61,373 nt of DNA from a virus. The stretch lies in UHGV virus genome UHGV-1597594; one strand, given 5' to 3'. The first letter of the stretch is position 1. Each line of letters opens with the position of its first letter. This document shows positions 1-59,389 of this stretch, in pieces. Position numbers and translations under genes: made by a program. The notes beneath the pieces are model-generated. The model ran no database searches and was not told the origin of the DNA. It saw only the letters and a list, made by a program, of their open reading frames with translations.

Positions 1-132
1 TGATGCAAAGTACGATGTACACAACATGCATTGCATATTTGCAATGATGCAAAGTACGATGTACACAACATGCATTGCATATTTGCAATGATGCAAAGTA
101 CGATGTACACAACATGCATTGCATATTTGCAA
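1..132. repeat. 44-bp tandem direct repeat, 3 identical copies (array may continue upstream of the window)
   Basis: Unit tgatgcaaagtacgatgtacacaacatgcattgcatatttgcaa occurs at 1-44, 45-88 and 89-132; it contains the promoter-like tgtacacaaca box seen elsewhere in the window. Confidence 0.9.
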
Positions 133-4437: not shown

Positions 4438-4459
4438 AAGTAGTTTATTTGTTTTGATT

Positions 4460-4617
4460 AAATTGTACTACATACATTGCAATTTTGCAATATGGGTTGT
4501 TAAAATGCACACATTGTACTACATGCAAAATGCTTTTGCATCATTTTGATACAACATGCAAAAACGAATTTGTACCGTTTTGATACAATGAATGCCAAGT
4601 TAAACTTTTGCATGACC
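4460..4617 (-). promoter_or_regulatory. cluster of 3-4 tandem promoter-like motifs upstream of the polymerase C-fragment gene
   Basis: aaattgtactacatacattgcaattttgcaa, acattgtactacatgcaaaatgcttttgcatc, ttttgatacaacatgca and ttttgatacaatgaatgcc...ttttgcat all resemble the recurrent tattgtacaaca-N12-ttgcac motif. Confidence 0.4.
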
Positions 4618-6473: not shown

Positions 6474-6541
6474 CTTGTATCTATGTTGTTGATTTTCAAT
6501 TTAATATATTGAACAACATTTGTTGACATTTTGCAACATTG

Positions 6542-9320: not shown

Positions 9321-9731
9321 TTAGAATAGAGATATTGTACAACAATTTGATTCAGGTTGCCATTCTACAATATGCGCATCAAAGTGTTTATTAAGCCAAT
9401 GTGCAAGTATGTGTCTATGACAAAATGCAGATGGCCTGCACCAGCATAACAATACAATATCTCTTTCGCCAGCAAGAATCTTTATGCGATGCAACATCAA
9501 ACTTATCTGTGACAATGCAGCGTCAAGTTTTGCAGTGTATTGTTCTGCATATTGTGCATTATCAAGCAAGCCTACTTTATGCAAACGAACAAGTGACATG
9601 TAATCAGGCATGACGTCAATCCATATAAAATCTGCTACGAAACCCTTGGGTTTTGTTGCAGACACTTGAACAAGAAATGCATTGTCAGGCAACTGTCTGC
9701 ATGCATAATATGAAGTCAAGATTCTTGTCAT
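9321..9731 (-). CDS. hypothetical protein
   Basis: ATG at 9731; 136 aa. Its last codons (NCCTIS) overlap the promoter-like box for the polymerase gene. Confidence 0.5.
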   Translation of the reverse strand: MTRILTSYYACRQLPDNAFLVQVSATKPKGFVADFIWIDVMPDYMSLVRLHKVGLLDNAQYAEQYTAKLDAALSQISLMLHRIKILAGERDIVLLCWCRPSAFCHRHILAHWLNKHFDAHIVEWQPESNCCTISLF

Positions 9732-11383: not shown

Positions 11384-11589
11384 CTTATTTATGATTTGAT
11401 GTCTTGTATTTATATTATATGTTGATATTGTACAACGCTAAGTGTCATTTTGCACTGTCGCCACCAATTTTTATTGATGGTGTTGCAAACAATGCAAGCA
11501 AACACCAGCCACTTTTAGTGACTGCACAAGCAACTGCTATTGCAGCAAAGAAGCTTGCATAAATGATTGCTGCAGCAAGCCAACTTGTT

Positions 11590-17048: not shown

Positions 17049-17081
17049 ATGCTTAAAATGTGATGTTTGAATATGTACAAA

Positions 17082-22402: not shown

Positions 22403-22508
22403 ATTGTGTGTAGTTTGCTTTCTTAATTTTTGGATATATACACATACTCAAACAGCACAAAAAACTTCGCATCAAGTTATTGATGCGAAGTGCACTCAAT
22501 GCAATATG

Positions 22509-24170: not shown

Positions 24171-24481
24171 TGTTTGTTGTTATTTGAGATGGTTTTGGAC
24201 AATTAGCAAAGAATGGATTGCATTTGTAGTTGTTCAGTCGCAAATCATCATACTGTGACTTGTCAATGTATTGCACTGTGACTTTGTTAAACGCTAGTTT
24301 AACGCCAAATCGAGCAGCGCATTGCGCATACAGCATATAACGACAATTAACATTCTTACGAGATATGCTGTTGTCCTTATTAAAGGATATTTTTCGTGTG
24401 CTTATGTATGCAAATGTAACATCGCCATCAAGACATGTAAACTTGCGTGCATACACATATACTCAAACAGTTTTCATAGCA

Positions 24482-26597: not shown

Positions 26598-26819
26598 TTA
26601 AGCTTCTTTGAAATTCAAGCAATTGTCTGACCAGCATTCTTCTGCAATCGTAAGCTCCAGTTCAGAGCAGTTATTCTTGATGAAGTCAGTCGGGTCATAA
26701 TTGAAATACACATATTCACCTGAATAGTGAAAAGGCTGTTCCATAGCAATCAATGCGAACATTAAACGGTCGATGTCCTTTTTATTGCCGTATGCTACGT
26801 AAACTTTAATCTGTTTCAT
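26598..26819 (-). CDS. small hypothetical protein
   Basis: 73-aa ORF; promoter-like box and a 15-bp inverted repeat (caacagttgtgcaaa/tttgcacaactgttg) lie just upstream at 26848-26888. Confidence 0.4.
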   Translation of the reverse strand: MKQIKVYVAYGNKKDIDRLMFALIAMEQPFHYSGEYVYFNYDPTDFIKNNCSELELTIAEECWSDNCLNFKEA

Positions 26820-26909
26820 TGTTGTAGAGGTTTTATATTATATATGATTATATAATACAACAGTTGTGCAAATTTTGCACAACTGTTGTCAATAAAATGC
26901 AATTTTTGT

Positions 26910-28655: not shown

Positions 28656-30533
28656 TCAAAAGCCTGCAAAGAAATCTGCATCAGCAGCATCTTGCTGCGG
28701 TGTTGACTCTTGTTCAATCACAAATCGACTGTGCAACTTTTGATTATGTTTTATGTATGGCATAATGCGCCGGATTGATTCGTCAATGACAAAAGTTTCA
28801 CACCAGTCATTTGCATGTCGAATGCCTCGACCAACTGACTGCACAAAGCTTTGATAACACTTATTGCGATACCAGCTTTCGTGATTTGCAGCCTTTGTTT
28901 TGACTACGATATCACCAAGTGACTGCCAAGGTAATTTTGCAACAATTTGACATCTACAACGATTGTCTGGTAAGTCAACGCCTTCAGTAATGCTAAAGCC
29001 TACAAGTACGTAGTTAGTGCCATCAGTAAGCATTGCAAGCTTATTTTGTTTGTCTTCAGCATTGACATATGTCAGCATTCTGCGTTTGTGCTTGCTGTTA
29101 TTGATGATATAGTTTGCAATGTCTCGTGTTGATGTATGTATGATGCAATTGCAGTCATGCGTGTCAAGAATGCTGTCAATTTTCTCGACAAGTCGAGGCA
29201 TATTTGCTGCTTTGTTTTTGTAACTCAATGACAATGCAGGTCTGCATAGTACAATGGGTGATTTGCTAAAATCCCAATCAGGCTCCATATAGAATGCCAC
29301 GTAGTTTTTGATGCCATTGAGTGTAGCAAATGTGTCAATATCACCAATTGTCGCTGACATCCACAATTGCGCATGCGTAGCATCACTATGATGCACCAGT
29401 GTATTTGCAAGAAGTTCGTCATTGACACATTTGAATTGCAAGCTGTTTGTTGCAGCATCAAGTACTACAAGCATGTCACCAGGTGATTGTTCAGTTGCAT
29501 CAAGCATTGTAATGATTGAATATGACAACGTATCACAGCTGGCAACAAAGCGAATGAACGCTTTCTCAAATTGACCAAGTTGTTTACCAGAATCCTGAAG
29601 TTCACTTAGCTTTTCATATGCAGTATGCAAAAAGTCTACAAGTTCTGACAACTGCTGTGCAAGCACTCTTGCTTCTGCTCGCATTGTTGCAATGTCATAT
29701 TGTGTTGTTGCAAGCTTAATGACTGCTTTGACTTGTGCAAACACATTGTTGCGAAGTTCTACATATTTGTTCTGATTTTCAAGAGTCATGATACCTGCAA
29801 TCAGTGACTCGGCCTTTGTGCAATTCTGAATGAATCGAGGACCAATTGACGTGTCAAGAAAGCCTGACAAAATGTCATCAATTTTATGACACTCATCGAA
29901 TATCGTCAATTCACGAGGCCCAAATAAGTTTTTGACGCAATTAACTTGTATCAGCCAGTATGCATAGTTAAGCACAGTGCAATTTGCTGCAGCAGCCTTT
30001 TGACGAGTCTGCAAATATGCGCATTTAGGTCCGCATGGCAATGCAAGAGCTTTCTTTGATGACAGACCATCTTGCTGACATTTACCCATGCTGAATGGCA
30101 GCCCATTGACATGACAAATGTAATTGTCTCGACCTTTGAGCATTACACAACTTCTGAATGCTGAAGTAGTTGTGTCTGCTTTAGCATTGTTGTCGTACAA
30201 ATATTGCTGAATGAACTTGTCATACTGGTCTTGCAGCAGTTTATCAGAAGTCAGCACGTATGACTTAAAGAACGTCGCGCAAAACATCGCAACCACAGAT
30301 TTTCCCGTTCCAGTCGCTCCCTGCAATATGACATTTTGCCCATTTGCAATTGCTCGAATAATGTCGATGATTAGATGACGCTGAGTTGCATCAAAACGCG
30401 CTTGGTCCCACTTGCATGTCTTTGATTGCGCAAGATATGCTGAGAATTTATCAATATGTGCTACAATAAGCTCATCAAGTTCTTGCTGAGATTGCTCTTC
30501 TGTCTTGTGTTCTACTGACGTTAGTCTACCCAT
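28656..30533 (-). CDS. DinG/Rad3-like superfamily-2 DNA helicase
   Basis: ATG at 30533. Walker A GATGTGKS, DECH box (LTIFDECHKID), four-Cys cluster between them (C..C..C..C) as in the Fe-S domain of DinG/XPD helicases. Confidence 0.8.
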   Translation of the reverse strand: MGRLTSVEHKTEEQSQQELDELIVAHIDKFSAYLAQSKTCKWDQARFDATQRHLIIDIIRAIANGQNVILQGATGTGKSVVAMFCATFFKSYVLTSDKLLQDQYDKFIQQYLYDNNAKADTTTSAFRSCVMLKGRDNYICHVNGLPFSMGKCQQDGLSSKKALALPCGPKCAYLQTRQKAAAANCTVLNYAYWLIQVNCVKNLFGPRELTIFDECHKIDDILSGFLDTSIGPRFIQNCTKAESLIAGIMTLENQNKYVELRNNVFAQVKAVIKLATTQYDIATMRAEARVLAQQLSELVDFLHTAYEKLSELQDSGKQLGQFEKAFIRFVASCDTLSYSIITMLDATEQSPGDMLVVLDAATNSLQFKCVNDELLANTLVHHSDATHAQLWMSATIGDIDTFATLNGIKNYVAFYMEPDWDFSKSPIVLCRPALSLSYKNKAANMPRLVEKIDSILDTHDCNCIIHTSTRDIANYIINNSKHKRRMLTYVNAEDKQNKLAMLTDGTNYVLVGFSITEGVDLPDNRCRCQIVAKLPWQSLGDIVVKTKAANHESWYRNKCYQSFVQSVGRGIRHANDWCETFVIDESIRRIMPYIKHNQKLHSRFVIEQESTPQQDAADADFFAGF

Positions 30534-30553
30534 TCTAAATGAGATTTAGATTA
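30534..30553 (-). promoter_or_regulatory. palindromic leader element abutting the helicase start codon (second copy at 37459-37477)
   Basis: tctaaatgagatttaga (7-bp arms, 3-nt loop) begins 1-3 nt from the ATG; the same 20-22 nt occur before the SbcCD-like gene. Confidence 0.5.
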
Positions 30554-30648
30554 TTTGTAAAGATATAATACTACAAACAGCACACATTTGCACTTTGACA
30601 TAACTGATTGAGTATCAATCAATTATGAGTTTATAAAAGTTTTTCAAA

Positions 30649-30750: not shown

Positions 30751-30784
30751 AAGCAAGCAGACTGCAATTGCAATCTGCTTGCTT
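30751..30784 (-). terminator. terminator hairpin downstream of CDS 30807-31163; near-identical copy at 47033-47060
   Basis: aagcaagcagactgca-at-tgcaatctgcttgctt (16-bp arms, one mismatch); T-rich run follows on the minus transcript. Confidence 0.5.
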
Positions 30785-31166: not shown

Positions 31167-32048
31167 CTATCGTTTGAATTTGATGAAGTGTTCAGCATCA
31201 AGGCCCTCGAATACATACGGGTCAAGAGTTTCCCAGAAGTTTGAGTATGTCGTTGTCTTTGCAATGCTTGTTTGCTTTGACAAGTTCATATTTGGGTAGC
31301 CAAGCATTGCATAGTGTCGCTCATATATGTGCATTGACGTCGCATTATGCACATATGCGCCAAGCTTAAGACCAAGTTCATTTGCGACAAGTTCTTGCAA
31401 CAAAGTGAATGCAAACTGGTCGTTACAGAAGCCCCAAATGACATCATTGCTTCGCATGTATGTTGTCAAGTACAGCTTATCACCACGAACATTAAAGACA
31501 AGATTCAATGTGCATGGCATGTCTTTGCCAGTGTAGTTTGCATATTGTGGCTCATAAATGCTAATAACTGCTCGTCTTGTGCATTCATGATTTCGCAAAC
31601 GTTCAATGACATCTGCAATCTGCTTATGCCAAATTGCACCATACTGCGAATTGACATTGACATCATCATCACTGAACTGCTTCCAGCGAGGCAAATAACG
31701 TTCAATGCATTCAACTGCAGGATTGGCTGTCATGTACCATGCAAATTCTGCTGCAGCATTGAGCTTTTTCCATGGTCGTACATCAATCTTGATTTGTCGC
31801 TGTGAAGGGTCCTGAATAACTACAGACACATTCAGCAATTCTTTTGTTCGAGTCACTGTTTGTGCATTGTTGCCCTTTGATTCTACAAACTCACCTCTAC
31901 AATGAAGTTCATACAAAATTGAGCGAAATGCTTCTGTTGCAGTGTTTTCAATGATTGTCGTCTGTTGATAACATAAATTTGACGACAATGATTCAGCATC
32001 ATTGTACTTTATGCTGTCATTGTTATAAGGTGAATTTTTTGTGTGCAT
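31167..32048 (-). CDS. ThyA-family pyrimidine hydroxymethylase-like enzyme (candidate dCMP hydroxymethylase)
   Basis: ATG at 32048. MPCTLNLVF (catalytic Cys region) and YMRSNDVIWGFCNDQFAFTLL align gap-free with ThyA RSCDVFLGLPFNIASYALL; Asp replaces the specificity Asn. Confidence 0.7.
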   Translation of the reverse strand: MHTKNSPYNNDSIKYNDAESLSSNLCYQQTTIIENTATEAFRSILYELHCRGEFVESKGNNAQTVTRTKELLNVSVVIQDPSQRQIKIDVRPWKKLNAAAEFAWYMTANPAVECIERYLPRWKQFSDDDVNVNSQYGAIWHKQIADVIERLRNHECTRRAVISIYEPQYANYTGKDMPCTLNLVFNVRGDKLYLTTYMRSNDVIWGFCNDQFAFTLLQELVANELGLKLGAYVHNATSMHIYERHYAMLGYPNMNLSKQTSIAKTTTYSNFWETLDPYVFEGLDAEHFIKFKR

Positions 32049-32069
32049 ATTTTGGGATGTTTGTTTTTG

Positions 32070-33167
32070 TTATCGTACAACGACAGTATCTCGTTTGCAA
32101 TCTGTTCTGTCAAATATCGAGCAACAATATGATGCAGATTGCTCTTTGATTGCAAGAGCTTCGTCATTGTCAAGTGATGAAATGCCATCTATGTATGCTT
32201 TTGCATTACCAGCAATATCATCATTTGTTAACAACGCTGCACGACGTTCAGCACCAAAGAAGCCAAAGCACAATTGACGCTGCAATGCTTCACGAGAAGT
32301 CTTGTCATCAAACTCGGATTTCATGTGTTGCATAAATTCGACAATGTCATCAATGTCACATTGAGTAAAGTCAATGTACAATTTATGCATATACTTGAAT
32401 CGTTTGTAGTCTGTTGCAAGAATTTCTGGATGTGCAATGAACAGCGTCTTTTTGCTATCTATTGGATTTGCAATGACTGACGCTTGAACATAATCAACAA
32501 GCATGCCAGATTTATGAAGCTGTTCAACTGTTTTGCCAAATACATGACCAAGTGTGTCATCAAACCACTTCAAGTACATTTCGCTGTCTTCATCTTTTGA
32601 TGCGCCAACAATGTAAATCTCATTGACTCCAAGTGCTTTGAGACGAATATCAGACAACATAGTGTTCAACTGATGCTGCACATATAGCATTGGGCTACTA
32701 TGCAAAACTGTCTTGACAATCTCACAAGCAATGTCCATATATGCATAGTCAAGCTTTGCAGATTTTGATACATATGCTGCACGTTGTTGCAATGGCTCAA
32801 TTGCAGAACATGTGGTCACAAAGTTGCCCACACATTCTGCTACTGCAATGTCATGCAAGTCATCTGCAATGTACACAATACTTGACAAATCATCAAATGT
32901 CTGTACAAGCTGCTGAAGCTTCGTTTTGTAATTGCAGAGCATCAATGACTTGATGTTGCAATTGCCAAGCATTGTCTTGATGAGTCGTTGACCTGCTTCA
33001 GTGCTATCACCAGAAATGACATGTACGTCGCAGTCAAACCAGTTCAGCATGTCAATTGCATGTCGAACACCATATTGCATTTGCTTTGCAAACTTACCAG
33101 ATTCATTGAACAGCATTTCACCTGACATAATGCCGTCAAAGTCACATACGATTTGAAGTCTGTCCAT
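32070..33167 (-). CDS. HAD-superfamily phosphatase (KdsC-like N-terminal domain) with an uncharacterised C-terminal domain
   Basis: ATG at 33167. VCDFDGI (HAD motif I), ISGDS, YIADDLHD (motif IV-like) in the first ~170 aa; about 190 further aa without a recognised motif. Confidence 0.6.
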   Translation of the reverse strand: MDRLQIVCDFDGIMSGEMLFNESGKFAKQMQYGVRHAIDMLNWFDCDVHVISGDSTEAGQRLIKTMLGNCNIKSLMLCNYKTKLQQLVQTFDDLSSIVYIADDLHDIAVAECVGNFVTTCSAIEPLQQRAAYVSKSAKLDYAYMDIACEIVKTVLHSSPMLYVQHQLNTMLSDIRLKALGVNEIYIVGASKDEDSEMYLKWFDDTLGHVFGKTVEQLHKSGMLVDYVQASVIANPIDSKKTLFIAHPEILATDYKRFKYMHKLYIDFTQCDIDDIVEFMQHMKSEFDDKTSREALQRQLCFGFFGAERRAALLTNDDIAGNAKAYIDGISSLDNDEALAIKEQSASYCCSIFDRTDCKRDTVVVR

Positions 33168-33531: not shown

Positions 33532-36500
33532 TTAACAAATTGATGACGTGCCATCAGTATTTGCTACAACTGTCAATGCACTATCAAACTCATCTTGTTG
33601 CAATACATGGTCAACTATGAGTGTTTTGCGAATTGCAGAAAGTTTGGTAAGCAATTGCATCAGCACTTGCTGATAATTGATATTGTTGACATCATGCTCA
33701 GCGCCAACAATCTGCCCATTGCTAAGCTTGCCACTGATTTCATCAATGAGCAAGATGTTGCCAACTTTGTTTAAGCGTTGAGTCAAAATGAGATGCACGA
33801 TTGCAAGACCTGCGAAAGTCCCTTCCATGCCAGACATTTGACTTACGCTTCTAATTGACTTCGAACCCATCAAGTCAATCATCTTCAGCACATTGTTGTC
33901 ATTGATGTCAAAGAACACTCGGTAGTTCAATGAATCCAGCAAATCATTGAGCTGTACATTCAATGATGTTGCAATTGCTGCAAAGACATATGAAACTAAG
34001 CCTCGTTTGCTTGTGCACTGCTTATATGCATTGTACACCAAGTTTGCAATGTTCCACTTTTTAGAAGCTTGCAAATCTTTCTTGAGAGCTTCAATTCGCA
34101 CATTGTTTGCTGACAAGTCTGCTTGCATTGTTGCAATTTCTGCATTGATGCTTAGCAGTTTTGAGTTTGCTTCAGTTTCATGCTGCTTAGCATCATCAAT
34201 GTCGACTTGCAATGCAGCATTTGCTGCAATATGCTGCTGAGTTTGCTGCGCATGTTCAAGTGCAAATGCTGCAGCAGTCTTATCAATCTCAAGTTGTTTA
34301 AGCGCAGACTCATATGTCGCTTTCTTGTCATACTCTATTTGAGCAATTTCAAGTTCAGCATTTATTGCAGCCAGTTCTGATTCTACTGCAGATTTTGATT
34401 GCAATACATCTTGCTTTGCTTGTTCAGCTTTACGTTTGATGTCTGCAAGTTGATTTGTGATATCTGCAATTTGTGTTTTGACTGCTTCGACTTCAAGCAA
34501 TGTTGCTGCAGTAGCTATTGGTTGTGCAATGAATGCGTCTAAGTCTCTTTGCGCATTGACTACAGTTCTCTGCAAATCATTGAGCTTTTCTGCATGCATA
34601 TCATATGCAGCTTTATGTGCTGGATTCAGCGCAGCAATAATTGCATTTGAATCTGTGACATCAATGACTGTTGCTTGCAATTGCTCAATTTCATACTTCA
34701 AATTGCCAATTTTGACAACATTCTCATTGAATTGCTCTGTTTTTTGTGCACATTCTTGACGCAACTTAGCAAGCTCAGTTGACAGCCACAGCTTGTATGC
34801 TTGTCCTGTGCCAGATGTCAAGTCATTTGTACATACAGGGCATTTGTCGTTTTCAAGTTGCTTTTGCTTGTCTATAACATTGTCGATGTTTGTTTTTGCA
34901 GCAGATACTTCTGTTCTAAGCGCATTTTGAACAGTGTTGATGTCTTCAATTTGCTTTTGCAAAGCATCTATTTTTGCCCGAGTGTTTGCATTGTACGACT
35001 TGCCAAGATTTATCAGCACAGAATCAATGTGCTGCTTTGCTGCATCATATGCAAGCTTTGATTCATCAAGCTTTGTTCTGTACAATAACTCTGCATGCGC
35101 AACTTCTTTCTGCACTTTTGCAGATAGCTCATTCTGTTTTGTAAGCAGCTCAGCATATGTATTGTGCAGCTGTGAGCCAGATGCTATGACATTTGTGTAT
35201 GCTGCATTAGCTTCATTGTCAATATTAGTGAGTTGTTGCTCAATCTGCGCTTTTACTGTTTGCAATTTAGACATGTCTTGCAATGCAAGTGCAGCAATGT
35301 CAAGCTCAACTTTGCGAATCTTTGCAACGATGCTATCGATATTTGCTGTTGCATCTTCTACAGTTAAAATATCTGCAGAAATTTGATGCAGTCTTTTTGA
35401 GAGCTCTTCTACTTTTGCACGTGCTTTTGTAAGTTTTGCAGACCACTCTTTTTGATTATCTTGTCGTAACTGCAAAGAGTCATTGAGTTCATTGCAAGTT
35501 GTATTGAGAGACTCAAGTTCTGCTTTTATTGCGACATCAGTCAACGCAGGTTTGCTAAGACCATCAAACAATGCAGCTTTTGCAGCATCATTAGAATTGC
35601 CGAGCTGCACAAATGTATTGATGCCAAGAGTATCAAGCAACCAGTCATTCAATGAATTTGAGTCCATTGCAATGATTTGGTCAAGCAATGTCTGATTGAT
35701 GCATACATATCGCGACAATTCCCATATAGAGCCAAAGATTGCATATAGTGTGTCTTTGATTTCATGCTGCGGCACTGCATAGTCATCTGACAATCGCACA
35801 AGTTGCACAGTCTCATTAACTGTTGACACATTGTCTCGCCATGAGCCATCTGCATTTATTCGAGAACCTCGTTTGAATTTGCGCTCAAGTGTTCGAGTCA
35901 ATTTGTAATGCACATTTTGACCCGCAACTACATGCACAAACACACAAGAAGCTTCAAGCTTGTCATATGACTCATTGTCAATCAACTTGTCATTGAAGTA
36001 CGTCAAAGCATTCTGCTTTGTTGCTGCAGAAGACTGTCCAGCGTCAATGAAGCCAGTCAATAGCCATTTAATAAGCCTAAAGATTGTTGTCTTGCCATTG
36101 CCATTGTTGCCTCTAACTTGTGTAAGTTGCGCAAGATTGTCAAAGCTAACATCAACATCTTTCAATGCCATGAACTGATTTGCTTTAACATTTTGAATGA
36201 CATATTTTGCAACTTCAGTGTCAAAAGACAATTTATCAATTTGTTCATCAATCAATGACTTGAACATGTCAACAAACTGCTGAGCGTCTTCAGTAGCAAC
36301 TATAGCATTGCGTTCAATGTACGCATTGACCCAGTCAAGTGCAGCATCTTTAAGCCATTCAGCAGTTTGAACTTTTTGCAGCAAATTGTCGCCATTTGCA
36401 TCTACAGCATTGATTGAATCAATGACAGCAGAATCATACAGAATGTCAATTGCGGCAACAACGTATGAACTTACAAGATTCTGTGCAATGCGCTCAACAA

Positions 36501-37458
36501 TACCAGACAGTTCGGGCTTTGTGACCTTTGACTTGATTTTGATTTTGTTGATGCGACCAGGATTGATGAGTGCAATCTTATCTGTTTTGATGTCATTGTC
36601 AATTGTGATTGTATGATAATGCACAAGCTGCTCAAGTGGATGCCACTCTGCACCAATTCGCTTGTTGTCAATATCGATGTCAAGCAAGTTGTAGCCATGT
36701 TCTGCAGTGCCCTGTTGCATTGCAGTGTCATTCAACAAATAGTCGCCTTCACCAAAATCTCTGACAATTGGCGAGCCGCAGTATGTTAATGTCTTGGTGC
36801 CAGAAGTCCATATTGCATGTTTGTGAATATCACCCATTGCAACAAAGTTGCTGTGAAACTGTGTTGCATCTATACGACTGTCATTGTCACCACGAACAAT
36901 ACAATCATCAAAGTTGACACAATTCTTTACTGGGTCATGGAACAGCTCAATGACACACATTGATGACAATGCTGCAATCTGCGATTCATCAAGTGATGCC
37001 CAAGGCGAATATGTGCCACCAGACCACTTCTCATTTTGAGCCCACACAGCAGCAGCAAAACCAGGTGCAAGCAATTCAACTCTTGAGCTATTGATGTATT
37101 TGATTCGCTTATCATCAATTGCAGTCACAAGCTTATCAATACTGTCTGTCCACTGCATTTGTGAGCCATCACCAGCATCAAATGTGTTATCACGTTGCTT
37201 CAAATCATGATTGCCTGCAGTGATAACGATTTGAAGCTTGTCATTGACTTCAAGCATGCCTTTGAGCAACTTAACAAACAGCGACTCTTCAAGTGAATTG
37301 CTGTTCCAATGCTCAAACACATCACCAACAATAAACACTAGCTCAACTGACTTTGCTTTGTCAATCAGTTGTTTGTTGATATACTCGTATTCTACAAAAC
37401 GTCGTAAATGCCCTTGTCGAACATTATATTGAATGTCTGCTATGTGAAGTGCTTTCAT
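33532..37458 (-). CDS. fused SbcD/Mre11-like phosphoesterase and SbcC/Rad50-like ATPase (single 1308-aa polypeptide)
   Basis: ATG at 37458. N-terminal HIADIQYN, VGDVFEHW, ITAGNHD (calcineurin-like phosphoesterase motifs); then Walker A GNNGNGKTT, a long coiled-coil region and C-terminal ILLIDEISGKL (Walker B/D-loop). Confidence 0.8.
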   Translation of the reverse strand: MKALHIADIQYNVRQGHLRRFVEYEYINKQLIDKAKSVELVFIVGDVFEHWNSNSLEESLFVKLLKGMLEVNDKLQIVITAGNHDLKQRDNTFDAGDGSQMQWTDSIDKLVTAIDDKRIKYINSSRVELLAPGFAAAVWAQNEKWSGGTYSPWASLDESQIAALSSMCVIELFHDPVKNCVNFDDCIVRGDNDSRIDATQFHSNFVAMGDIHKHAIWTSGTKTLTYCGSPIVRDFGEGDYLLNDTAMQQGTAEHGYNLLDIDIDNKRIGAEWHPLEQLVHYHTITIDNDIKTDKIALINPGRINKIKIKSKVTKPELSGIVERIAQNLVSSYVVAAIDILYDSAVIDSINAVDANGDNLLQKVQTAEWLKDAALDWVNAYIERNAIVATEDAQQFVDMFKSLIDEQIDKLSFDTEVAKYVIQNVKANQFMALKDVDVSFDNLAQLTQVRGNNGNGKTTIFRLIKWLLTGFIDAGQSSAATKQNALTYFNDKLIDNESYDKLEASCVFVHVVAGQNVHYKLTRTLERKFKRGSRINADGSWRDNVSTVNETVQLVRLSDDYAVPQHEIKDTLYAIFGSIWELSRYVCINQTLLDQIIAMDSNSLNDWLLDTLGINTFVQLGNSNDAAKAALFDGLSKPALTDVAIKAELESLNTTCNELNDSLQLRQDNQKEWSAKLTKARAKVEELSKRLHQISADILTVEDATANIDSIVAKIRKVELDIAALALQDMSKLQTVKAQIEQQLTNIDNEANAAYTNVIASGSQLHNTYAELLTKQNELSAKVQKEVAHAELLYRTKLDESKLAYDAAKQHIDSVLINLGKSYNANTRAKIDALQKQIEDINTVQNALRTEVSAAKTNIDNVIDKQKQLENDKCPVCTNDLTSGTGQAYKLWLSTELAKLRQECAQKTEQFNENVVKIGNLKYEIEQLQATVIDVTDSNAIIAALNPAHKAAYDMHAEKLNDLQRTVVNAQRDLDAFIAQPIATAATLLEVEAVKTQIADITNQLADIKRKAEQAKQDVLQSKSAVESELAAINAELEIAQIEYDKKATYESALKQLEIDKTAAAFALEHAQQTQQHIAANAALQVDIDDAKQHETEANSKLLSINAEIATMQADLSANNVRIEALKKDLQASKKWNIANLVYNAYKQCTSKRGLVSYVFAAIATSLNVQLNDLLDSLNYRVFFDINDNNVLKMIDLMGSKSIRSVSQMSGMEGTFAGLAIVHLILTQRLNKVGNILLIDEISGKLSNGQIVGAEHDVNNINYQQVLMQLLTKLSAIRKTLIVDHVLQQDEFDSALTVVANTDGTSSIC

Positions 37459-37480
37459 ATTCTAAATGAGATTTAGATTA

Positions 37481-37550
37481 TATGTTGATATTGTACAACA
37501 TGCAAAATGCACTTGCATTTTGATGCAAAGTACAGTGTACACAACATGCA
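37481..37550 (-). promoter_or_regulatory. two tandem promoter-like motifs upstream of the SbcCD-like gene; the second is a diverged copy of the 44-bp repeat unit at 1-132
   Basis: tatatgttgatattgtacaacatgcaaaatgcac and tgatgcaaagtacagtgtacacaacatgca (28/30 identical to positions 1-30 of the repeat unit). Confidence 0.45.
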
Positions 37551-37555
37551 AAATG

Positions 37556-39132: not shown

Positions 39133-40295
39133 GGACAAATGTCGCAGTTATGTTGATGTTTGTGTTTATTTATGAAGTCATATGTCACTGCAAAAAAGTG
39201 CTTTGCAATGTCATATCGAGTTTTCAAATATGACGCTTGGCGTTCACAAAACGCTGCATAAATGTCTGGGTGTTGTTTGAATGCAGCAATGCGTTGCTGT
39301 ACTTGTTCTGCAGAATGTACATATGACACTTTGCTCAAATATGCATCATCTGCAAATAATCGTCTGTCTTTGTCAACTGCGCAATCAACAAAAGTTGCAA
39401 TTCGTGCAACAATGGCTTCACCAACACGATTTGGCATCAACCCATATTGCTCATATTGTTGGTCACCAATAGCAATGTGTGCTGCTGCATATGACATTGC
39501 ATATGGCACACTATAAAATGGCACGCTAAAATCAAATGAGCAATTTGACTGTAGTAGTTGCGCTTGTGCATCAGACAATCTACTTGTCAAGTTGCCTGTA
39601 TGTTTGTGCTCACCAAGAAAACTTGAGCGACAACCTGAATCTACATAGTATCGAATGACTTTGTTTATGCGACTGTCAGATAGCATATGCCAATCTCTTG
39701 TAGCATATATCAAGTCTACTGTTTTTGCACCAATATGACGAGGCTCTATCGCAACATTGCTGTACGTTGGTAGCATGAACAATGGCAGCCATTTGACATT
39801 GTTGAACACTGAATGCTCATTTGACAAATTCATGCACTGGCTAAGTTCAAGTACTGGCTCATCATACACGCCATGTAGCTCAACTCTGCCTGCATGCACA
39901 AAGTTGACACGCTTAAATGGGAATCGCATGTCAGTACAAATTGTCATTCTTGCTGCAGTAGACATTCGCCACATAGCATGCAGCTTAACAACTGCTTCTG
40001 CTTGAGGTCGAGGCAACATATTTAGCAAATCAATCCAGCCACCCCACAAAATCCAAACATCATTTGAACAGATGTTGAATTGCAAACTCAATATGTCTTC
40101 TACTGTTGCAGCAATGATGTCATGCCCATTGATGCTTGCAAGGTGCTTTCGTTGATTTGCAATAAGAATGACTTGGCTGAATGGAGACTCTGGAAATGAC
40201 ACAAGCGCTTTTGCAAACAACACGGGTTCTTGCGACACCAAGTTGTTTGAGTATGGGTCGATTATGCAATCAAGCTTGTGTATGAAGAGTCTCAT
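39120..40295 (-). CDS. hypothetical protein (paralog Y1 of 43686-44855)
   Basis: 391 aa; shares AHIAIGDQQYEQYGLMPNRVGEAIV with LVVGDSLYVQAGLLPNRWVEGVL of CDS 43686-44855. Confidence 0.55.
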   Translation of the reverse strand: MRLFIHKLDCIIDPYSNNLVSQEPVLFAKALVSFPESPFSQVILIANQRKHLASINGHDIIAATVEDILSLQFNICSNDVWILWGGWIDLLNMLPRPQAEAVVKLHAMWRMSTAARMTICTDMRFPFKRVNFVHAGRVELHGVYDEPVLELSQCMNLSNEHSVFNNVKWLPLFMLPTYSNVAIEPRHIGAKTVDLIYATRDWHMLSDSRINKVIRYYVDSGCRSSFLGEHKHTGNLTSRLSDAQAQLLQSNCSFDFSVPFYSVPYAMSYAAAHIAIGDQQYEQYGLMPNRVGEAIVARIATFVDCAVDKDRRLFADDAYLSKVSYVHSAEQVQQRIAAFKQHPDIYAAFCERQASYLKTRYDIAKHFFAVTYDFINKHKHQHNCDICPCKL

Positions 40296-41026
40296 TTTGC
40301 AGATGATTCAAAAAATTTGTAGACATCGCAGTTAGCAATGTGGTCATTCCAAGCATCTTCAGAGTCTGCAACAAAGCCACAATGACAGCGTTTTGGTTGC
40401 CAAACTGGTTCAACTACTGCAGGCATTGCTTCTTCAATAGTGTTTGCAGGTTCATTATCTGCTGGCAATACTTCAACGTCTTCAACTTGTGCTGCATCTT
40501 GTTGTGTACGCTGCTCAATGACATTGCCCTCAAAGTCAAACTGAATGCCAGCTTGTTCTGCTTTTGTACGATTGTTACGAGCTACGAACAAATACGCAAA
40601 GATGAATTCGACAAGCGCTATAGCAAGTGACTTCAATGCATTGACAAGAAGCATGATGCCAGTTGATAAGTGACCATCAAAGCTCAAAAATACGAACACA
40701 CATGTAAAGCATGACATAAACACTGCAATCAGTGGAATGTTCTTGTATTTTGGCAACAAATCAGAGTTGACTGACGTAAGCAACACAACGAATTGATAGC
40801 CTATCGCAAGCCAATGGTCGCCAAACACTGCATAGATATGCGTAGTGATGCCAATAAGAAATGTGATAGTCACAATCATAATGAGCAACACACTTGTCAG
40901 AAAGTCTGCAATAGAATTGCTGAGCTTGTCATACCAGTGTTTGTTGACAATTGATGTGTTGGCTACGCGCACTTTACTAAGTGCATCTATGCCGCTTTTG
41001 ATATTTGATTGTGCTTTCATACACAT
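40292..41026 (-). CDS. polytopic membrane protein
   Basis: 244 aa with at least four hydrophobic segments and a Cys/His-containing C-terminal tail. Confidence 0.55.
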   Translation of the reverse strand: MCMKAQSNIKSGIDALSKVRVANTSIVNKHWYDKLSNSIADFLTSVLLIMIVTITFLIGITTHIYAVFGDHWLAIGYQFVVLLTSVNSDLLPKYKNIPLIAVFMSCFTCVFVFLSFDGHLSTGIMLLVNALKSLAIALVEFIFAYLFVARNNRTKAEQAGIQFDFEGNVIEQRTQQDAAQVEDVEVLPADNEPANTIEEAMPAVVEPVWQPKRCHCGFVADSEDAWNDHIANCDVYKFFESSAK

Positions 41027-41514
41027 ATAACGTTATATCATATCTACACACAAAGCAAATGCTACTGCAAGTGCAGCCATAATTGCATATATGACTATTG
41101 ATGCAGTATAATCTGATTCAGGATTCCACTTATCAGGTGTGTTAAGCTTGTGATACTTGTCTCGTCTCATCTTGAGTCAAAAAATGATGGCTGCTGCTAC
41201 ATTTTGTGAAATCATGTGCAGCAGCCATCTGGCAGGTTTCTTGCTTTGTAAAGCTTGGATAGAGGATGGATTTTATATGTTGATATTGTACAACATATAT
41301 TGTCATTTTGCACAGTCTGATGCAATCAAATCTTTGTCAAAACATTCATCTATAATGTCTTCAATAAGATACGCTTCGACATTGTTAAGCTTCAAGATAT
41401 CTACGAGTTTTGCTTTGATATCGCAAGCTAATGCAGATTCAACTGTATGCAATATGACTGATGATGCGACATGCTTGTCTGTCATCATTTGTAATTGCTG
41501 TGGTGTTACTCTAC

Positions 41515-42087
41515 TCATGCACCAAGTTCAGCTAAGCATTTCAACACATTGTCTTGCAGACTTACATTATTGTCGATTTCGACAATATGCAATGGTGAGT
41601 TCTTTCGCCACTCATCATATGCAGCAATCATTTCATTGCGTTTGCTGACATCAATGTTGACATTACCACAAAAGTTATCGACAAAATCTGGTGCGACATC
41701 ACGCTTGCATAAGAACACTACATGCGGCAATGTTGCAAGCTTCTTTTCATATGCTTCAAAGAATGCTTGATGCTTATCAGTGTGCAACTCTTTGTAAAGC
41801 GTTGTGTTGAAGATTTGATGTGTGATGAACGAACGGTCACACAAAAATGTTGCTTTGTCAAAGCCTTGAGAGTCATTTCCAATGAACTCTAAGAAGAAGC
41901 GCCAATCATAAAAGAACGCTTCATTGAGGTCCCAAGGTTCGGGCATTGGGTCATCACCTGACTCATGCTGTTGCCACCAAGAACGAGATGTTCGTTTGCA
42001 ATTGATAAACCATGGGCGCCACTTCATCAATTCATTGATGAGTGTTGTTTTGCCTGAAGCTTCTACACCTTCAAATATTGCTATCAT
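41515..42087 (-). CDS. thymidylate-kinase-like P-loop dNMP kinase
   Basis: ATG at 42087. N-terminus MIAIFEGVEASGKTT matches the Tmk P-loop (IxxEGxxGxGKTT). Confidence 0.7.
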   Translation of the reverse strand: MIAIFEGVEASGKTTLINELMKWRPWFINCKRTSRSWWQQHESGDDPMPEPWDLNEAFFYDWRFFLEFIGNDSQGFDKATFLCDRSFITHQIFNTTLYKELHTDKHQAFFEAYEKKLATLPHVVFLCKRDVAPDFVDNFCGNVNIDVSKRNEMIAAYDEWRKNSPLHIVEIDNNVSLQDNVLKCLAELGA

Positions 42088-42132
42088 TGTGTATTATGTT
42101 TGATTTTTGATTACAGTACAACGTAGTTATGC

Positions 42133-43689
42133 TCATTGCACTTCTACGAATGGCTCTTTCAACACAAAGCTGTCACCATTGCAACATGCGGCTGAGCAAT
42201 CGTCTGCATCAAGTGCACATGACATATCAGACTTACAGAACTTGCAATATGAACATGACCATGCATGACTCATAAAGTCGTTTGCTTCACAAATTACACA
42301 GCGCTCATGTGAAAGTGTATTGTCGCAATTGTCACAAGACTTTTTGATTGGCACATCTTTATTGATATATGCAAGATGCAATGCAATATCATACACAAAG
42401 TCGCCCGTATATTGCTGAATGAAATCAGTGTGCCACAGTTCTTTCAATAATTGCGCATGTCTGTATGGCTGAACAATGTCTTCAAGATGCTGCAAGTCAT
42501 CATCGCTAACCATGAGCTTCTTAATGACAAACTGTTTGAACTGTGGCCATCTGTCAAACATATAGAGTTTGCATGAGTTGTGCACAAGTGGAACACAGCC
42601 AAGCACAATGCTTTCACAGAATCTACGCAAACTAAAACAGTTTGCATCATATGACGGCACAATCAATGTGAATCTGCTATGCTTGATGAGTTCAAGGTAT
42701 GTGTCATATGGCAGTAGCTTATCTGACAATTGCTGTTGTTGTTTGTCTCTGCTGAAAAATCTGAACACAATGCCTTTGTCAATTGCATCTTGATTGTGTA
42801 GATGCATGAGTTTGCTGATGAGTTCTGTGCGTTCAGTTTTGTCTCGCCAAGTATTCGTCAATGCAAATGCAAAATTTAGTCGCTTGTCATCAAATGTCGC
42901 TTCAATGTCATTCCAAGTTTTGCCATGCAAATACCAGTATTGCTGTGATGGACACCATCCATAGTATGCGACAGCATCTTGTTCTGCTGTAACGTCGTAC
43001 ACATATGCAGAATTGTATTCAAGACCAAGCTTTTTGACATTGTTGCAGTCATGAAAATACCAATGCTGCACTTTGAATATCTTTGATGCACTGAATGCGC
43101 TTTCATATGGCCCTGAATAGCGATAGTCAATGTAATTGAGCTTGTGCTGCAATGGGTCTTCGACAAAGTTGTTTATGACTGTGCCTTGTTGTTTGTCCTT
43201 AGTCTTGCGAGCATTCAATGCAACATTGTATTGCATGATGACTGACAGCATCTCATACACTACATACATGAGTGCTTTGTAGACTGAGCCTGCTGCGTCA
43301 ATTAGTGGCAAATCACGTTTGACTGATGTAGCACCAAATGTCTTGCAATATGCAGAAAATGTGTCAAGTTCTGCTTGCTGAAATGAATTGCATGCACCAT
43401 TGAATATGTTGAATGTTGCAATGTAGCTCATATTGCAAGACGTCATTGACATATCAAGACGCTTCATAATGTCGACAATGCGACATTGAGCAAAATCTGA
43501 CACATCAACATATTTGACATGATGGCATGATGTAGTCAAGCCATCTGCGACATCTTTCATCTGTGGCACAAAGCCTATAACAATGAACAAGTCATCTTTG
43601 TTTGCTCGTTCAAACATTGCTGCACTTTTCCAAGTCAATGAATTGAAAAAGTCTATGTAGCCAGTTTGAGTGATGATATGTGTTCTCAT
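42133..43689 (-). CDS. GT-B-fold glycosyltransferase-like protein (paralog X2) with Cys-rich C-terminal extension
   Basis: ATG at 43689. PSYDANCFSLRRFCESIVLGCVPLV signature; about 80 extra C-terminal residues with 14 Cys. Confidence 0.6.
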   Translation of the reverse strand: MRTHIITQTGYIDFFNSLTWKSAAMFERANKDDLFIVIGFVPQMKDVADGLTTSCHHVKYVDVSDFAQCRIVDIMKRLDMSMTSCNMSYIATFNIFNGACNSFQQAELDTFSAYCKTFGATSVKRDLPLIDAAGSVYKALMYVVYEMLSVIMQYNVALNARKTKDKQQGTVINNFVEDPLQHKLNYIDYRYSGPYESAFSASKIFKVQHWYFHDCNNVKKLGLEYNSAYVYDVTAEQDAVAYYGWCPSQQYWYLHGKTWNDIEATFDDKRLNFAFALTNTWRDKTERTELISKLMHLHNQDAIDKGIVFRFFSRDKQQQQLSDKLLPYDTYLELIKHSRFTLIVPSYDANCFSLRRFCESIVLGCVPLVHNSCKLYMFDRWPQFKQFVIKKLMVSDDDLQHLEDIVQPYRHAQLLKELWHTDFIQQYTGDFVYDIALHLAYINKDVPIKKSCDNCDNTLSHERCVICEANDFMSHAWSCSYCKFCKSDMSCALDADDCSAACCNGDSFVLKEPFVEVQ

Positions 43690-44855
43690 GATTTGAATGT
43701 TTGTTCAAGAATAGTGTAACACTGCACAATCATTGCTGCAAGAGCTTTTTGCTGTGCTTGTTTGCAATCATCAAAATTTGTGGGCGCGGTGCGTACGCGT
43801 GTTTTGCTATTAAGTGTTGCAAATGTCGCGTAGTCATTGAAGTCTACGATATCAGCAAATATGGCGCTTGGCTCATAATCTACAAGTATATTGCAGCAAT
43901 TTGCAAGTACGCCTTCAACCCATCGATTTGGCAGCAAGCCTGCTTGCACATACAATGAATCACCAACTACAAGATTGTACGCGGACCTCGACATTACATG
44001 AGGCATTGCATCATATGCGACTTTGTATTTAAGTGTAAAGTTTGGCGCTGCTGATTTAACCGCAGACAAAATTGTGTCATCAAGATATGATGTTATGAGA
44101 CATGTGTCGCACATATGTATGACAAATTGTTCAATCACACTTCTACGATACTCGTCAAGATATGTGAAACCTGCACAACTTGCACAGCATGCATATTGCT
44201 GCTTTATGTCAGCAAAGCTAAGCACATGAGCTTCAATTGCATTTTGCATCGTTGCTTGTCGTTTGAGCAATCTTGGCTCTTTAATGCATTGAAGCTTCAA
44301 TGCATTGACTGCTGCAATGATTTGCAATGGCACAAACACGCATTGAGACTCATCAAGCCAAGCATACTTGAGATTTTTATGTTGACACAGATGCGTAATG
44401 TAGTCTTTTTGCGATTCTAAGTACTCTTTGTAATTGTGCAATCGCTTTGTCAATGTGCACTCTTTACCAAAATCAAATCGCAAATCAGTTGTTAGCGTAA
44501 ATTTGCGAACATTTGACAAACACCATGCTTTGAACGCATTCCACAGAACATCTTGCTGAAATTCTGAGCAATGCTCAAGAGCAGCCTTTGAGCCCTGCCA
44601 GAATATTGCGCAATCATCTGATTTTGCACACTTCAGCATATCTTGCCATGCATGTATGTTATTGATAATATGCACGTTATCATAATACACAAGCTCTTCA
44701 AGTATTGCATGCTTGTTCTCAGGGTCGCCAAACACGTACACTGCATCAAACATTGTTTGAACAAACCCTGCAAATGCAATGGGTTCTGTATGTTTAAGAT
44801 GCTGTATGTCTGAACGCACACATGTGTCAAATTTCAAAATGAAGAGTTTGCTCAT
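43686..44855 (-). CDS. hypothetical protein (paralog Y2)
   Basis: ATG at 44855, preceded by the promoter-like box at 44875-44895; homologous to CDS 39120-40295. Confidence 0.55.
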   Translation of the reverse strand: MSKLFILKFDTCVRSDIQHLKHTEPIAFAGFVQTMFDAVYVFGDPENKHAILEELVYYDNVHIINNIHAWQDMLKCAKSDDCAIFWQGSKAALEHCSEFQQDVLWNAFKAWCLSNVRKFTLTTDLRFDFGKECTLTKRLHNYKEYLESQKDYITHLCQHKNLKYAWLDESQCVFVPLQIIAAVNALKLQCIKEPRLLKRQATMQNAIEAHVLSFADIKQQYACCASCAGFTYLDEYRRSVIEQFVIHMCDTCLITSYLDDTILSAVKSAAPNFTLKYKVAYDAMPHVMSRSAYNLVVGDSLYVQAGLLPNRWVEGVLANCCNILVDYEPSAIFADIVDFNDYATFATLNSKTRVRTAPTNFDDCKQAQQKALAAMIVQCYTILEQTFKS

Positions 44856-45552
44856 ATGCTTTGCAATTATCTATTACATGTTGATATTGTACTTCATCTA
44901 TGATGTGATTTGCAATGACACCATATGAAGTGTCATACATTGGCATCTTCTCATATGACAATGCTGCATCAAGATTGCATATCACATAATTGCAATGCAC
45001 AATGTCATCTACATTGTCACTAACTGCTACGATATTGACACACTTTGCAAGAAATGCATCATCAAAGTCTACTTGATTGCATGCAACCTCATAATCTGCA
45101 GCGCTTCTTGGGTACCAATATAACTCAATGCCTGCACTGCTAAGTAGTCGCAAGCCATCTATGTGATGATACAAGTCAATAAAATGCACTTGCTTAACAC
45201 CTGCTTGCAAAATAAGCTTTGCGCAATCAATGCATGGACTATATGTTACATACAACACAGCATCGTTTGCAGTCGCATTGCCATATTTGCACAGCTTCAT
45301 CAATGCATTTGATTCTGCATGCAAAACTTCTTTGTTGGTTTTGATGCCAGCTGAAGTATCATGTTCGCAACAATTTGACATACCAGTTGGCATGCCATTG
45401 TAGCCATCTGAAATTATGCGGCTGTCTTTTACAAGCAATGCGCCAACTTTTGCTCTCTGAGCATGTGAATTCAATGACCAAAGCTCAGCCATTTTAAGAT
45501 ATATGAGATTTCGTTGAAACCACTTCGTTTCAGACCAAGTCAGCCATTTCAT
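44827..45552 (-). CDS. dCMP deaminase (cytidine/deoxycytidylate deaminase zinc-binding family)
   Basis: ATG at 45552. HAESNAL (H-A-E) and YSPCIDCAKLI (PCxxC) zinc-ligand motifs. Confidence 0.8.
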   Translation of the reverse strand: MKWLTWSETKWFQRNLIYLKMAELWSLNSHAQRAKVGALLVKDSRIISDGYNGMPTGMSNCCEHDTSAGIKTNKEVLHAESNALMKLCKYGNATANDAVLYVTYSPCIDCAKLILQAGVKQVHFIDLYHHIDGLRLLSSAGIELYWYPRSAADYEVACNQVDFDDAFLAKCVNIVAVSDNVDDIVHCNYVICNLDAALSYEKMPMYDTSYGVIANHIIDEVQYQHVIDNCKAYEQTLHFEI

Positions 45553-46945: not shown

Positions 46946-47032
46946 ATTGTTTTATCATATATGAATATATTGTACAACATAAAGCGCATACTTGCACTTT
47001 GTGTTGCTAAAAATATCGTCATTGTACACAAA

Positions 47033-47060
47033 ACAAGCAGGCTGCAATTGCAGTCTGCTT
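47033..47060 (-). terminator. terminator hairpin downstream of CDS 47107-47652 (copy of the 30751-30784 element)
   Basis: caagcaggctgca-at-tgcagtctgcttg; followed on the minus strand by the promoter-like box and the start of the gene at 46945. Confidence 0.5.
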
Positions 47061-47106
47061 GCACTTTACTAACCCTTAAAATCAATGACACTATGTCAAT
47101 GTCATT

Positions 47107-50477: not shown

Positions 50478-50529
50478 ATTGTTTTGTTATATGATTAATG
50501 TACTACGTAGCATCAACTTTTGCACAATG

Positions 50530-53337: not shown

Positions 53338-53488
53338 CGCAATAAAATTTTAGAAAGTTTAACAAAAAGTTTGAAATGAACTCTTCAGAAAATCTTCAGA
53401 AGTTTATTTGTTATTTGTATATGTATTGTGCAACATGCATATTCATATTGTATATGAATATGATACAACATGCTAATATCATTTGCAC

Positions 53489-59217: not shown

Positions 59218-59382
59218 TGTTGTAGAGATTTTTGTGTACTATATTGATATATGATAATTGTACTACAAAAATCACAAATTTGCACTGATTTGATATATAA
59301 TATGTCAATAAATTTCACATACAAAAGTCTTTTCGCTTATGAAAACTACTCAACTCTGGTTTGAACGCCAGCAGTCAATCGC

Positions 59383-59389
59383 GGGGGGG
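59383..59389 (+). repeat. G7 homopolymeric tract between an upstream ATG (59339) and the downstream ORF
   Basis: gcgggggggc at 59381-59390. Confidence 0.9.

Follow-up and report, generated by a model that had tools for sequence, protein, structure and literature searches.

A putative phage-specific sigma-70-type promoter class ahead of replication genes in a large phage with a probable Bacteroidota host

Why does a short two-part sequence recur upstream of minus-strand genes in a phage genome, and which polymerase would read it? The question was raised by a sequence-only reading of the UHGV virus genome UHGV-1597594, in which a promoter-like motif was noticed around position 37,481 of the 61,373-nt stretch that we analyzed here in full (hereafter, the window). 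To our knowledge, almost nothing is known about how transcription is organized in phages of gut Bacteroidota, and the clade in question has no isolates.

Architecture and distribution of the motif

A search of the 61-kb window for GTGCAA-N12-TGTTGTACAATA with up to 3 mismatches returned 17 matches, against 0.31 expected from dinucleotide-preserving shuffles, none of which (0/100) reached 17. All 17 copies lie on the minus strand, which is also the coding strand (the long ORFs of the window are all on it), and a 48-column position weight matrix recovered exactly these 17 and had no plus-strand hit. In the alignment of the copies, TGCAA occupies positions 1-5 and is invariant, the base before it being G in 10, T in 4, and A in 3. 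The second box, TACAAT, occupies positions 23-28 and has the form TAnnnT (first T in 16/17, A at -11 in 16/17, and final T at -7 in 17/17). The spacer between the boxes is 17 nt of free sequence in every copy, in agreement with the spacing first reported for the motif. Within it, the 12-13 positions after TGCAA carry little information, and a G-T-(T/A)-G element ahead of TACAAT has both G's and the first T invariant.

In addition, an A is found 7 nt downstream of the final T of TACAAT in all 17 copies, and a pyrimidine (C/T) stands just before it in 14; since both lie outside the search pattern, they constitute independent evidence. We infer from this arrangement that transcripts start at the motif, with the invariant A as the putative +1, and the distance from this A to the next start codon is mostly 13-37 nt. 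Thus, the copies combine a free spacer of 17 ± 1 nt, a TAnnnT box, a purine ~7 nt after the -10 box, and a gene on the same strand, i.e., the features of a sigma-70-type bipartite promoter. The sequence-only reading had rejected the upstream hexamer as a sigma-70 -35 element, which is too strong, since (G/T)TGCAA matches 3-4 of the 6 positions of TTGACA at the canonical 17-nt distance. To judge by this layout, the architecture of the motif is sigma-70-like, though its sequence is clade-specific.

The position of the copies relative to genes points the same way. The -10 box falls in non-coding DNA in 15 of the 17 copies (binomial P ~3e-14), according to a simple gene model in which 90.8% of the window is coding and 9.2% non-coding. 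Several copies are preceded by strong terminator hairpins with a T-tract, and a generic scan of the window for sigma-70 promoters and terminators gave no enrichment over shuffles and was of no help in classification. The motif is absent from the 13.4-26.8 kb block and from the head-fibre-domain gene at 1511-3001, where other motifs occur, and so it is not a general promoter of all minus-strand genes.

All individual copies are given in Table 1. Most of the sites proposed by the sequence-only reading (4460-4617, 9331, 11419, 13311, 26848, 30562, 37481, 41273, 42108, 46962, 50493, 53419-53490, and 59250) are real, two were missed (6507-6536 and 32071-32100), and three items turned out to be non-canonical. 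More specifically, the item at 17060-17075, immediately behind a terminator, is another motif, TGTACATAT; that at 44875-44895 corresponds to a weak copy at 44885-44915; and the 44-bp repeats at 1-132, like the element at 37530-37547, represent a related variant, GCATGTTGTGTACnnnGTACTTTGCAT, whose -10 region contains two additional nucleotides. In related contigs, this variant is always found directly ahead of a canonical copy, as are the homologous repeats of relative L160, and therefore the repeats at 1-132 probably precede a canonical copy just off the window. It had also been noted that some copies lie inside the 3' end of the preceding gene, and this is so wholly for 9362-9333 and 32100-32071 and partly for the copies starting at 41313 and 42141. 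The tandem copies ahead of replication genes were likewise correctly described, and they precede the C-terminal part of the DNA polymerase, gp32, and the SbcCD-like gene.

Table 1. Motif copies, variants, and other promoter-like elements (coordinates of canonical copies run from the -35 box to the putative +1; positions are those of the window unless a locus of a relative is named)
Feature	Position	Strand	Remarks
Three 44-bp tandem repeats of variant element TTGCAAATATGCAATGCATGTTGTGTACATCGTACTTTGCATCA	1..132	-	Downstream of terminator 141-164
Promoter copy nearest PolB C-terminal gene 3145-4437	4455..4490	-	-35 = TTGCAA; predicted 5'UTR 18 nt
Second tandem copy before gene 3145-4437	4506..4541	-	
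Third, degenerate copy before gene 3145-4437	~4545-4580	-	
Copy before gene 5646-6473 (275 aa, function not assigned)	6501..6536	-	Not in the earlier list
Copy before PolB N-terminal (exonuclease) gene 7798-9303	9327..9362	-	Within 3' end of ORF 9321-9731
Copy before gene 10814-11383 (189 aa)	11420..11455	-	
Copy before small ORF starting ~13243, after shared leader AAACCTCTACTACAA	13308..13343	-	
Copy before gene 26598-26819 (73 aa)	26845..26880	-	-35 region = palindrome GTGCAAAATTTGCAC
Copy before helicase gene 28656-30533	30558..30593	-	
Copy before divergent thymidylate-synthase-like gene 31167-32048	32065..32100	-	Within 3' end of ThyA gene 32070-33167; not in the earlier list
Copy before 1308-aa Mre11/Rad50 (SbcCD-like) fusion gene 33532-37458	37483..37518	-	Site to which the sequence-only reading pointed
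Variant upstream element CATTTTGCATGTTGTGTACACTGTACTTTGCATC	37520..37555	-	Adjoins -35 box of copy at 37518
Perfect-consensus copy before small ORFs and gene 40292-41026	41278..41313	-	
Copy before dNMP-kinase-like gene 41515-42087	42106..42141	-	
Weak copy before gene 43686-44855	44885..44915	-	TTGCAA, 18-nt spacer, TACAAT, no GTTG
Perfect-consensus copy before gene 45557-46945	46962..46997	-	Terminator hairpin 47034-47062 ahead
Copy before gene 50037-50477 (146 aa)	50490..50525	-	
Proximal of two tandem copies before gp32-like SSB gene 52207-53337	53418..53453	-	
Distal tandem copy before gp32	53453..53488	-	Kept in relatives L035, L036, L038
Copy before gene 58738-59217 (159 aa)	59250..59285	-	
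Host-type box before sigma gene	L024 2340-2395	-	
Host-type box before sigma gene	L162 9940-9975; L163 9915-9950; L164 9900-9935; L165 5395-5430		
GTACATAT before head-fibre-domain gene	3037-3045	-	
GTACATAT before 1113-aa gene	17071-17079	-	
GTACATAT	60663-60671	-	
GTACATAT in relatives	L162 2700, 8290; L164 2026, 2049, 8284; L165 6500, 9406; L024 5082, 1338		

Two other kinds of element were tried for the motif and rejected. One was a hairpin in RNA or DNA: no common secondary structure or covariation was found among the 17 copies, and the inverted repeat TGTTG..CAACA is present in only 3-4 of them. The other was an operator palindrome, TGCAAAn5TTTGCA, which occurs 4 times in the window against 3.0 expected.

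Genes behind the motif and conservation in relatives

The genes preceded by the motif include both parts of a split family B DNA polymerase (an exonuclease/N-terminal gene at 7798-9303 and a polymerase/C-terminal gene at 3145-4437), a gp32-like SSB, two helicases (one at 28656-30533), an SbcCD-like fusion, a ThyA-like protein, and a kinase-like protein, together with several further genes to which no function was assigned. Most likely, then, the motif serves a 'middle' class of replication, recombination, and nucleotide-metabolism genes. Other genes of the window encode a dCMP deaminase, a thioredoxin, a canonical ThyA, a dUTPase, MazG, and GT47-like glycosyltransferases, and a Pfam search of ~70 window proteins found no sigma, RNA polymerase, MotA, or AsiA domains.

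Two further observations concern this gene content. The halves of the polymerase lie ~3.4 kb apart on the minus strand, with five ORFs between them, and each half has its own motif copy or copies. There is also a dense nucleotide-modification toolkit (31167-33167, 42133-44855, 44827-45552, and ~9.3-13 kb), with a canonical ThyA and a divergent ThyA-like protein, dCMP deaminase, two GT47-like glycosyltransferases, a dUTPase/dCTP-deaminase-like protein, MazG, DUF488, and DUF4326. This toolkit suggests a hypermodified, possibly glycosylated, pyrimidine in the phage DNA, of the kind reported for the relative PAU (PMC7824862).

Relatives of the phage occur in metagenome assemblies of ENA and Logan, where two sample labels look, on our reading, like names of pig- and human-gut studies. 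Contigs were identified for gp32 homologues with 94, 74, 61, and 56% identity. In the relatives at 74, 61, and 56%, both boxes and their spacing are kept before orthologous genes. Examples of copies upstream of gp32 and neighboring genes in the gp32 contigs, all on the coding strand, are TGTGCAAATGATGACTTTGTGTTGTAATATAT, TGTGCAAACAATTCACAAATGTCGTACAATGT, TGTGCAACATGTTATCAGATGTTGTATTTTAT, and AATGCAAATTTGATATGCAAGTCGTATAATCA. Alignment of the regions upstream of gp32 shows that TGCAAA and a GT..TA core are conserved and the spacer is variable. The clade consensus is TGCAA(A)-N12-13-GTnGTAnnAT, and the -10 hexamers of relatives are TAATAT, TATAAT, TACAAT, and TATTTT. The motif is also kept before an orthologous ~200-aa gene (L162 7101, L165 2463, and L024 6237); the sequences that follow the helicase gene were also aligned but were uninformative, the gene content there differing among relatives.

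Collectively, strand, position, bipartite geometry, the A found at +1 in every copy, and the persistence of the motif in diverged relatives uphold the promoter-like nature that it was first credited with, and on these grounds we consider it very probable that the motif acts as a promoter, of whatever type.

Host, phage sigma factor and competing readings

Megablast of 20 kb of the window gave no nucleotide match to GenBank phages, and relatives among phages are only distant and at the protein level (23-31% identity). A conserved 1113-aa protein matches Chryseobacterium phages MA9V-1 and MA9V-2 (31% identity), as well as Sphingomonas phage PAU, Tenacibaculum phages PTm1, PTm5, and pT24, a Flavobacterium phage, and the Prevotella Lak megaphages. 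In IMG/VR, two contigs (175,564 and 174,628 bp) share 97-98% amino acid identity with the window proteins, and by this similarity the window is part of a phage of at least 175 kb that is distantly related to jumbo phages of Bacteroidota. Among 2.9 million contigs, only these two contain multiple exact matches to the motif, all of them on one strand and spread over at least ~95 kb. A metagenome scan with a degenerate motif returned at least 120 single chance matches, and among the matches listed none had multiple copies and none was related to the window by blastn. The comparison thus has the depth of a handful of short metagenomic contigs, with the exact motif in multiple copies in the contigs of this phage only.

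None of the 51 genes that start with ATG has a Shine-Dalgarno (SD)-like tetramer in the 20 nt upstream, and their leaders are A-rich and G-poor; absence of SD sites together with A-rich leaders is the pattern of Bacteroidota (PMC6847099). A comparison of ThyA with bacterial genomes, made for a clue to the host, gave no confirmed match. The host is most likely a Bacteroidota, as far as sequence features can tell. The primary sigma factor of that phylum recognizes TTTG at -33 and TAnnTTTG (TAHHTTTG) at -7 and makes no use of E. coli-type promoters (PMC6847099). TAnnTTTG occurs 63 times in the window against 61 expected and TTTG-N17-21-TAnnTTTG occurs 5 times against 3.1, i.e., with no enrichment, and the motif, when placed in the TAnnTTTG register, reads TACAATAT and misses three of the four TTTG positions. 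The observation that the motif does not match the Bacteroidota consensus was therefore correct.

A candidate for the factor that would read it came from MA9V-1, whose ORF23 is annotated as a sigma factor (PMC10537231). Searched by tblastn against fetched fragments of the two IMG/VR contigs, ORF23 identified a 298-aa ORF (L024:1428-2324, minus strand; E 1.5e-17) in contig IMGVR_UViG_3300045988_152288, which is 97-98% identical to the window at the amino acid level. The gene lies outside the window itself, ~19 kb past its high-coordinate end in contig coordinates. The product scores above the cut-off for PF04542 (Sigma70_r2; 33.2 bits, cut-off 24), PF04545 (Sigma70_r4; 26.2 bits, cut-off 24.1), and TIGR02937 (67.3 bits, cut-off 42.9), matches PHROG 351 'RNA polymerase sigma factor' (E 5e-25), and resembles SigA and RpoS most among proteins of solved structure. 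Thus, the near-identical contig, rather than the window, encodes a sigma-70-family protein that has region 2 as well as region 4. Orthologues exist at 43-99% identity, and the motif is kept in loci whose sigma is 55-61% identical. Region 2.3/2.4 (AKFSTYAYPWIKKYVLDELN; FSTYA..W core) is nearly invariant and close even in MA9V-1, and conservation of region 4.2 (STSG..KRAxHK) stops at the limits of the clade. This combination of a conserved region 2 with a private region 4.2 fits the parallel pairing in the motif, whose -10 box is the generic TAnnnT and whose -35 box is private.

The sigma gene appears to have a promoter of another type. The motif is absent upstream of it in all five lineages (L024 and L162-L165), and in the same five lineages the gene is preceded by GATTAA(A/T)TTTA, i.e., TAnnTTTA, which is the host -7 element with A for the final G. 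This box resembles a Bacteroidota primary-sigma promoter, unlike the motif, from which the -7 element TAnnTTTG is absent. In L024, the element GTTTCACATGTGAC..TAAATTTATATAACAAATTAAAAC closely resembles repeated upstream elements of MA9V-1, including one before the MA9V-1 sigma gene. A variable-spacing regular expression found this early-type element in MA9V-1 and, within ~130 kb of this phage, only at the sigma gene, and a fixed-spacing pattern for such a promoter gave no match. With its sigma gene behind a host-like box and other genes behind the motif, one phage would thus contain two distinct promoter grammars.

We therefore favor, with a rough probability of 0.6, the reading that the motif is a phage-specific sigma-70-type promoter class, which would be read by the host core polymerase together with the 298-aa phage sigma factor. 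We infer the link from sigma to motif from their co-occurrence, from the promoter architecture, from the other promoter type of the sigma gene, and from the clade-specific region 4.2. In such a promoter, (G/T)TGCAA(A) would fill the -35 slot and GT(T/A)G-TACAAT the -10 slot, with the 17-nt free spacer between the boxes and the start at the invariant A. The host sigma holoenzyme would transcribe the phage sigma gene from the TAnnTTTA box, and the phage sigma would then direct the host core polymerase to the motif promoters of the replication genes, where the tandem copies before PolB, gp32, and SbcCD may raise output. The host sigma would presumably be unable to read these promoters, because their grammar is foreign to Bacteroidota. 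The initial suggestion of a phage-encoded or phage-modified polymerase accordingly finds a candidate for its second form, i.e., the sigma-70-family gene of the near-identical contig, and the first form finds no RNA polymerase domain in the window.

A phage sigma cascade is in itself a classical mechanism; here, it would operate in a group where it has not been described before. The middle promoters of Bacillus phage SPO1 are read by the phage sigma gp28 and have the consensus AGGAGA / TTTnTTT. As proposed for the present phage, an early phage sigma transcribed from host-type promoters redirects the host core polymerase in SPO1, and the promoters have a bipartite -35/-10 form, a private sequence, and a location before replication-class genes. 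The two systems differ in consensus, host phylum, and phage lineage, and the link between sigma and promoter is a proposed one in the present phage. In phiEco32, gp36-dependent promoters consist of a single -10-like box, TAATGTATA. The similarity lies in a sigma-70-family phage factor and a private -10 box with a TGTA core, whereas the present motif has, at a fixed distance, a -35 box no less conserved than its -10 box.

It is unlikely that the motif copies are early promoters read directly by the host primary sigma, in the way that T4 early promoters are read by E. coli sigma-70. TACAAT matches TATAAT at 5 of 6 positions and TTGCAA matches TTGACA at 4 of 6, so that with the -35/17 nt/-10/+1 geometry they make a decent sigma-70 promoter that an ordinary sigma-70 could read, and one relative within the group, Sphingomonas phage PAU, infects a proteobacterium. 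TTGCAA-17-TACAAT agrees with the E. coli consensus at 9 of 12 positions, and if the host is not a Bacteroidota, an ordinary sigma-70 might read it directly. The genes without SD sites (51 of 51) argue against this reading, as do the closest isolates, which infect Bacteroidota, whose primary sigma uses TTTG/TAnnTTTG rather than E. coli-type promoters (PMC6847099). The three missed TTTG positions of the motif and the different, host-like box before the sigma gene itself in five lineages also speak against it.

Distinctly unlikely, in our view, is that these are middle promoters read by a host sigma remodeled by phage proteins of the MotA/AsiA kind, with an activator on the TGCAA(A) box replacing -35 recognition. 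The gene class is the same as behind T4 middle promoters (equivalents of gp32, gp43, and gp46/47, and nucleotide metabolism), which likewise combine a TAnnnT -10 box with a non-host upstream box and coexist with a separate short late motif. In addition, the upstream box is clade-specific, and in a few copies (4524-4540 and 37501-37517) it forms a 6-5-6 palindrome, TGCAAAnnnnnTTTGCA, of the sort a dimeric DNA-binding protein would prefer. On the other hand, this palindrome is confined to a minority of copies and is not enriched, and (G/T)TGCAA(A) is placed at -35 here, whereas the MotA box is (a/t)(a/t)TGCTT(t/c)a at -30. MotA and AsiA domains were not found in the window, the phage having a full sigma with region 4 instead, and the -10 box is unfit as the Bacteroidota -7 element that a remodeled host sigma would still read.

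A phage-encoded RNA polymerase, whether single-subunit or phiKZ-like multisubunit, would explain why the motif is private to the phage, yet we give it very little weight, because no such domain was found in the window, because two boxes with a free 12-nt spacer, TAnnnT, and a +1 A form a sigma-type geometry rather than a contiguous T7-type block, and because the group 2 jumbo phages of Iyer et al., which include PTm1 and a Lak megaphage, are reported to encode no RNA polymerase but sigma factors and a gp33-like factor (PMC7824862). Equally improbable is that the motif is not a promoter but a repressor operator, a replication/recombination site, or a transcribed RNA element, since the tandem 44-bp variant repeats and the shared leader cassettes, which show that the region duplicates as a unit, have to be set against the strict orientation with genes, the fixed distance to start codons, the presence of TAnnnT and a +1 A, and the conservation of the boxes but not of the spacer.

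Other promoter-like motifs, leaders and repeats

A second, shorter motif, (T)GTACATAT, consists of one box that lacks a -35 counterpart; structural-type genes have it 20-45 nt ahead of their start codons (Table 1). It often directly follows the T-tract of a terminator, and in relatives it stands before many genes in the neighborhood of the sigma gene. Both its one-box structure and the kind of gene it precedes suggest a late class of the T4 gp55 type, and by this analogy it may be the late class of the phage. The T4-type late (gp55) promoter is a single -10 element, TATAAATA, with no -35, a form that the two-box motif does not share. Since the sigma gene lies among structural-type genes in relatives, its product could equally be a late factor. 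The phage may also encode further sigma-like factors, either gp55-like or gp33-like.

We tentatively propose, at somewhat less than even odds, a three-tier programme of mutually unreadable grammars in the gut Bacteroidota jumbo phages of this clade, in which host-type TAnnTTTA would serve the sigma gene, the 'E. coli-like' -35/-10 grammar TGCAA-N13-GTnGTAnnAT the replication genes (being read only by the phage sigma), and the single-box GTACATAT the virion genes. If this is true, the phage introduces into its Bacteroidota host a promoter language illegible to the sigma of that host, and Bacteroides and Prevotella would have a sigma/promoter pair that is orthogonal by nature. The consensus with its at least 17 instances, the candidate sigma, and the two further motif classes make up a map of temporal gene classes that can be used for annotation. 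The pair is testable and might be of use for switching expression orthogonally in Bacteroides, a host in which parts from E. coli fail.

A third element, TGTTTGAGTAT(R)TGT(R)TAT, occurs twice in the window (0.13 expected), at 22436-22454 and 24451-24469 on the minus strand, each time before a large gene without assigned function (476 and 553 aa) and in one case just after a strong terminator. Neither this pattern nor TGTTTGAGTATRTGTRTAT had a match in any other fetched locus.

The leaders between motif and start codon contain repeats of their own. That of gp32 has two copies of a direct repeat, TTCTGAAGA (53382-53401, minus strand), which is kept, at variable spacing, in relatives down to 56% protein identity and which may be a translational operator, by analogy with the action of T4 gp32 on its own mRNA. 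A leader cassette, AAACCTCTAC(A/T)ACAA-ATG, is identical at 26819-26833 and 13244-13258 (minus strand) before unrelated genes, and another, TCTAAATCTCATTTAGAAT, is identical at 37459-37477 and 30532-30550 (minus strand), where it abuts or overlaps the ATG. Identical leaders before unrelated genes indicate that promoter and leader were apparently duplicated as units. The first cassette, AAACCTCTAC, contains CCTC, i.e., the anti-SD sequence itself, in a genome without SD sites. Furthermore, a near-identical terminator hairpin, GCAAGCAGAYTGCAATTGCAGYCTGCTTG followed by TTTTGT, lies upstream of two motif copies (47034-47062 and 30754-30782, minus strand).

Among the few candidate plus-strand ORFs of the window is 59339-60117, which starts ATGAAAACTAC... 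and is divergently oriented to the promoter at 59285. It matches no family, and a paralogous start of this ORF adjoins another motif copy in locus L027 (~4215-4390). Finally, the genome, at 40% GC, contains four G/C homopolymer runs of 7-10 nt (19042-19050, 59383-59389, 60567-60576, and 60751-60760). Two runs fall between 59.3 and 60.9 kb, a stretch in which ORFs of the plus strand seem to be interrupted, and such runs could be phase-variable tracts or assembly errors.
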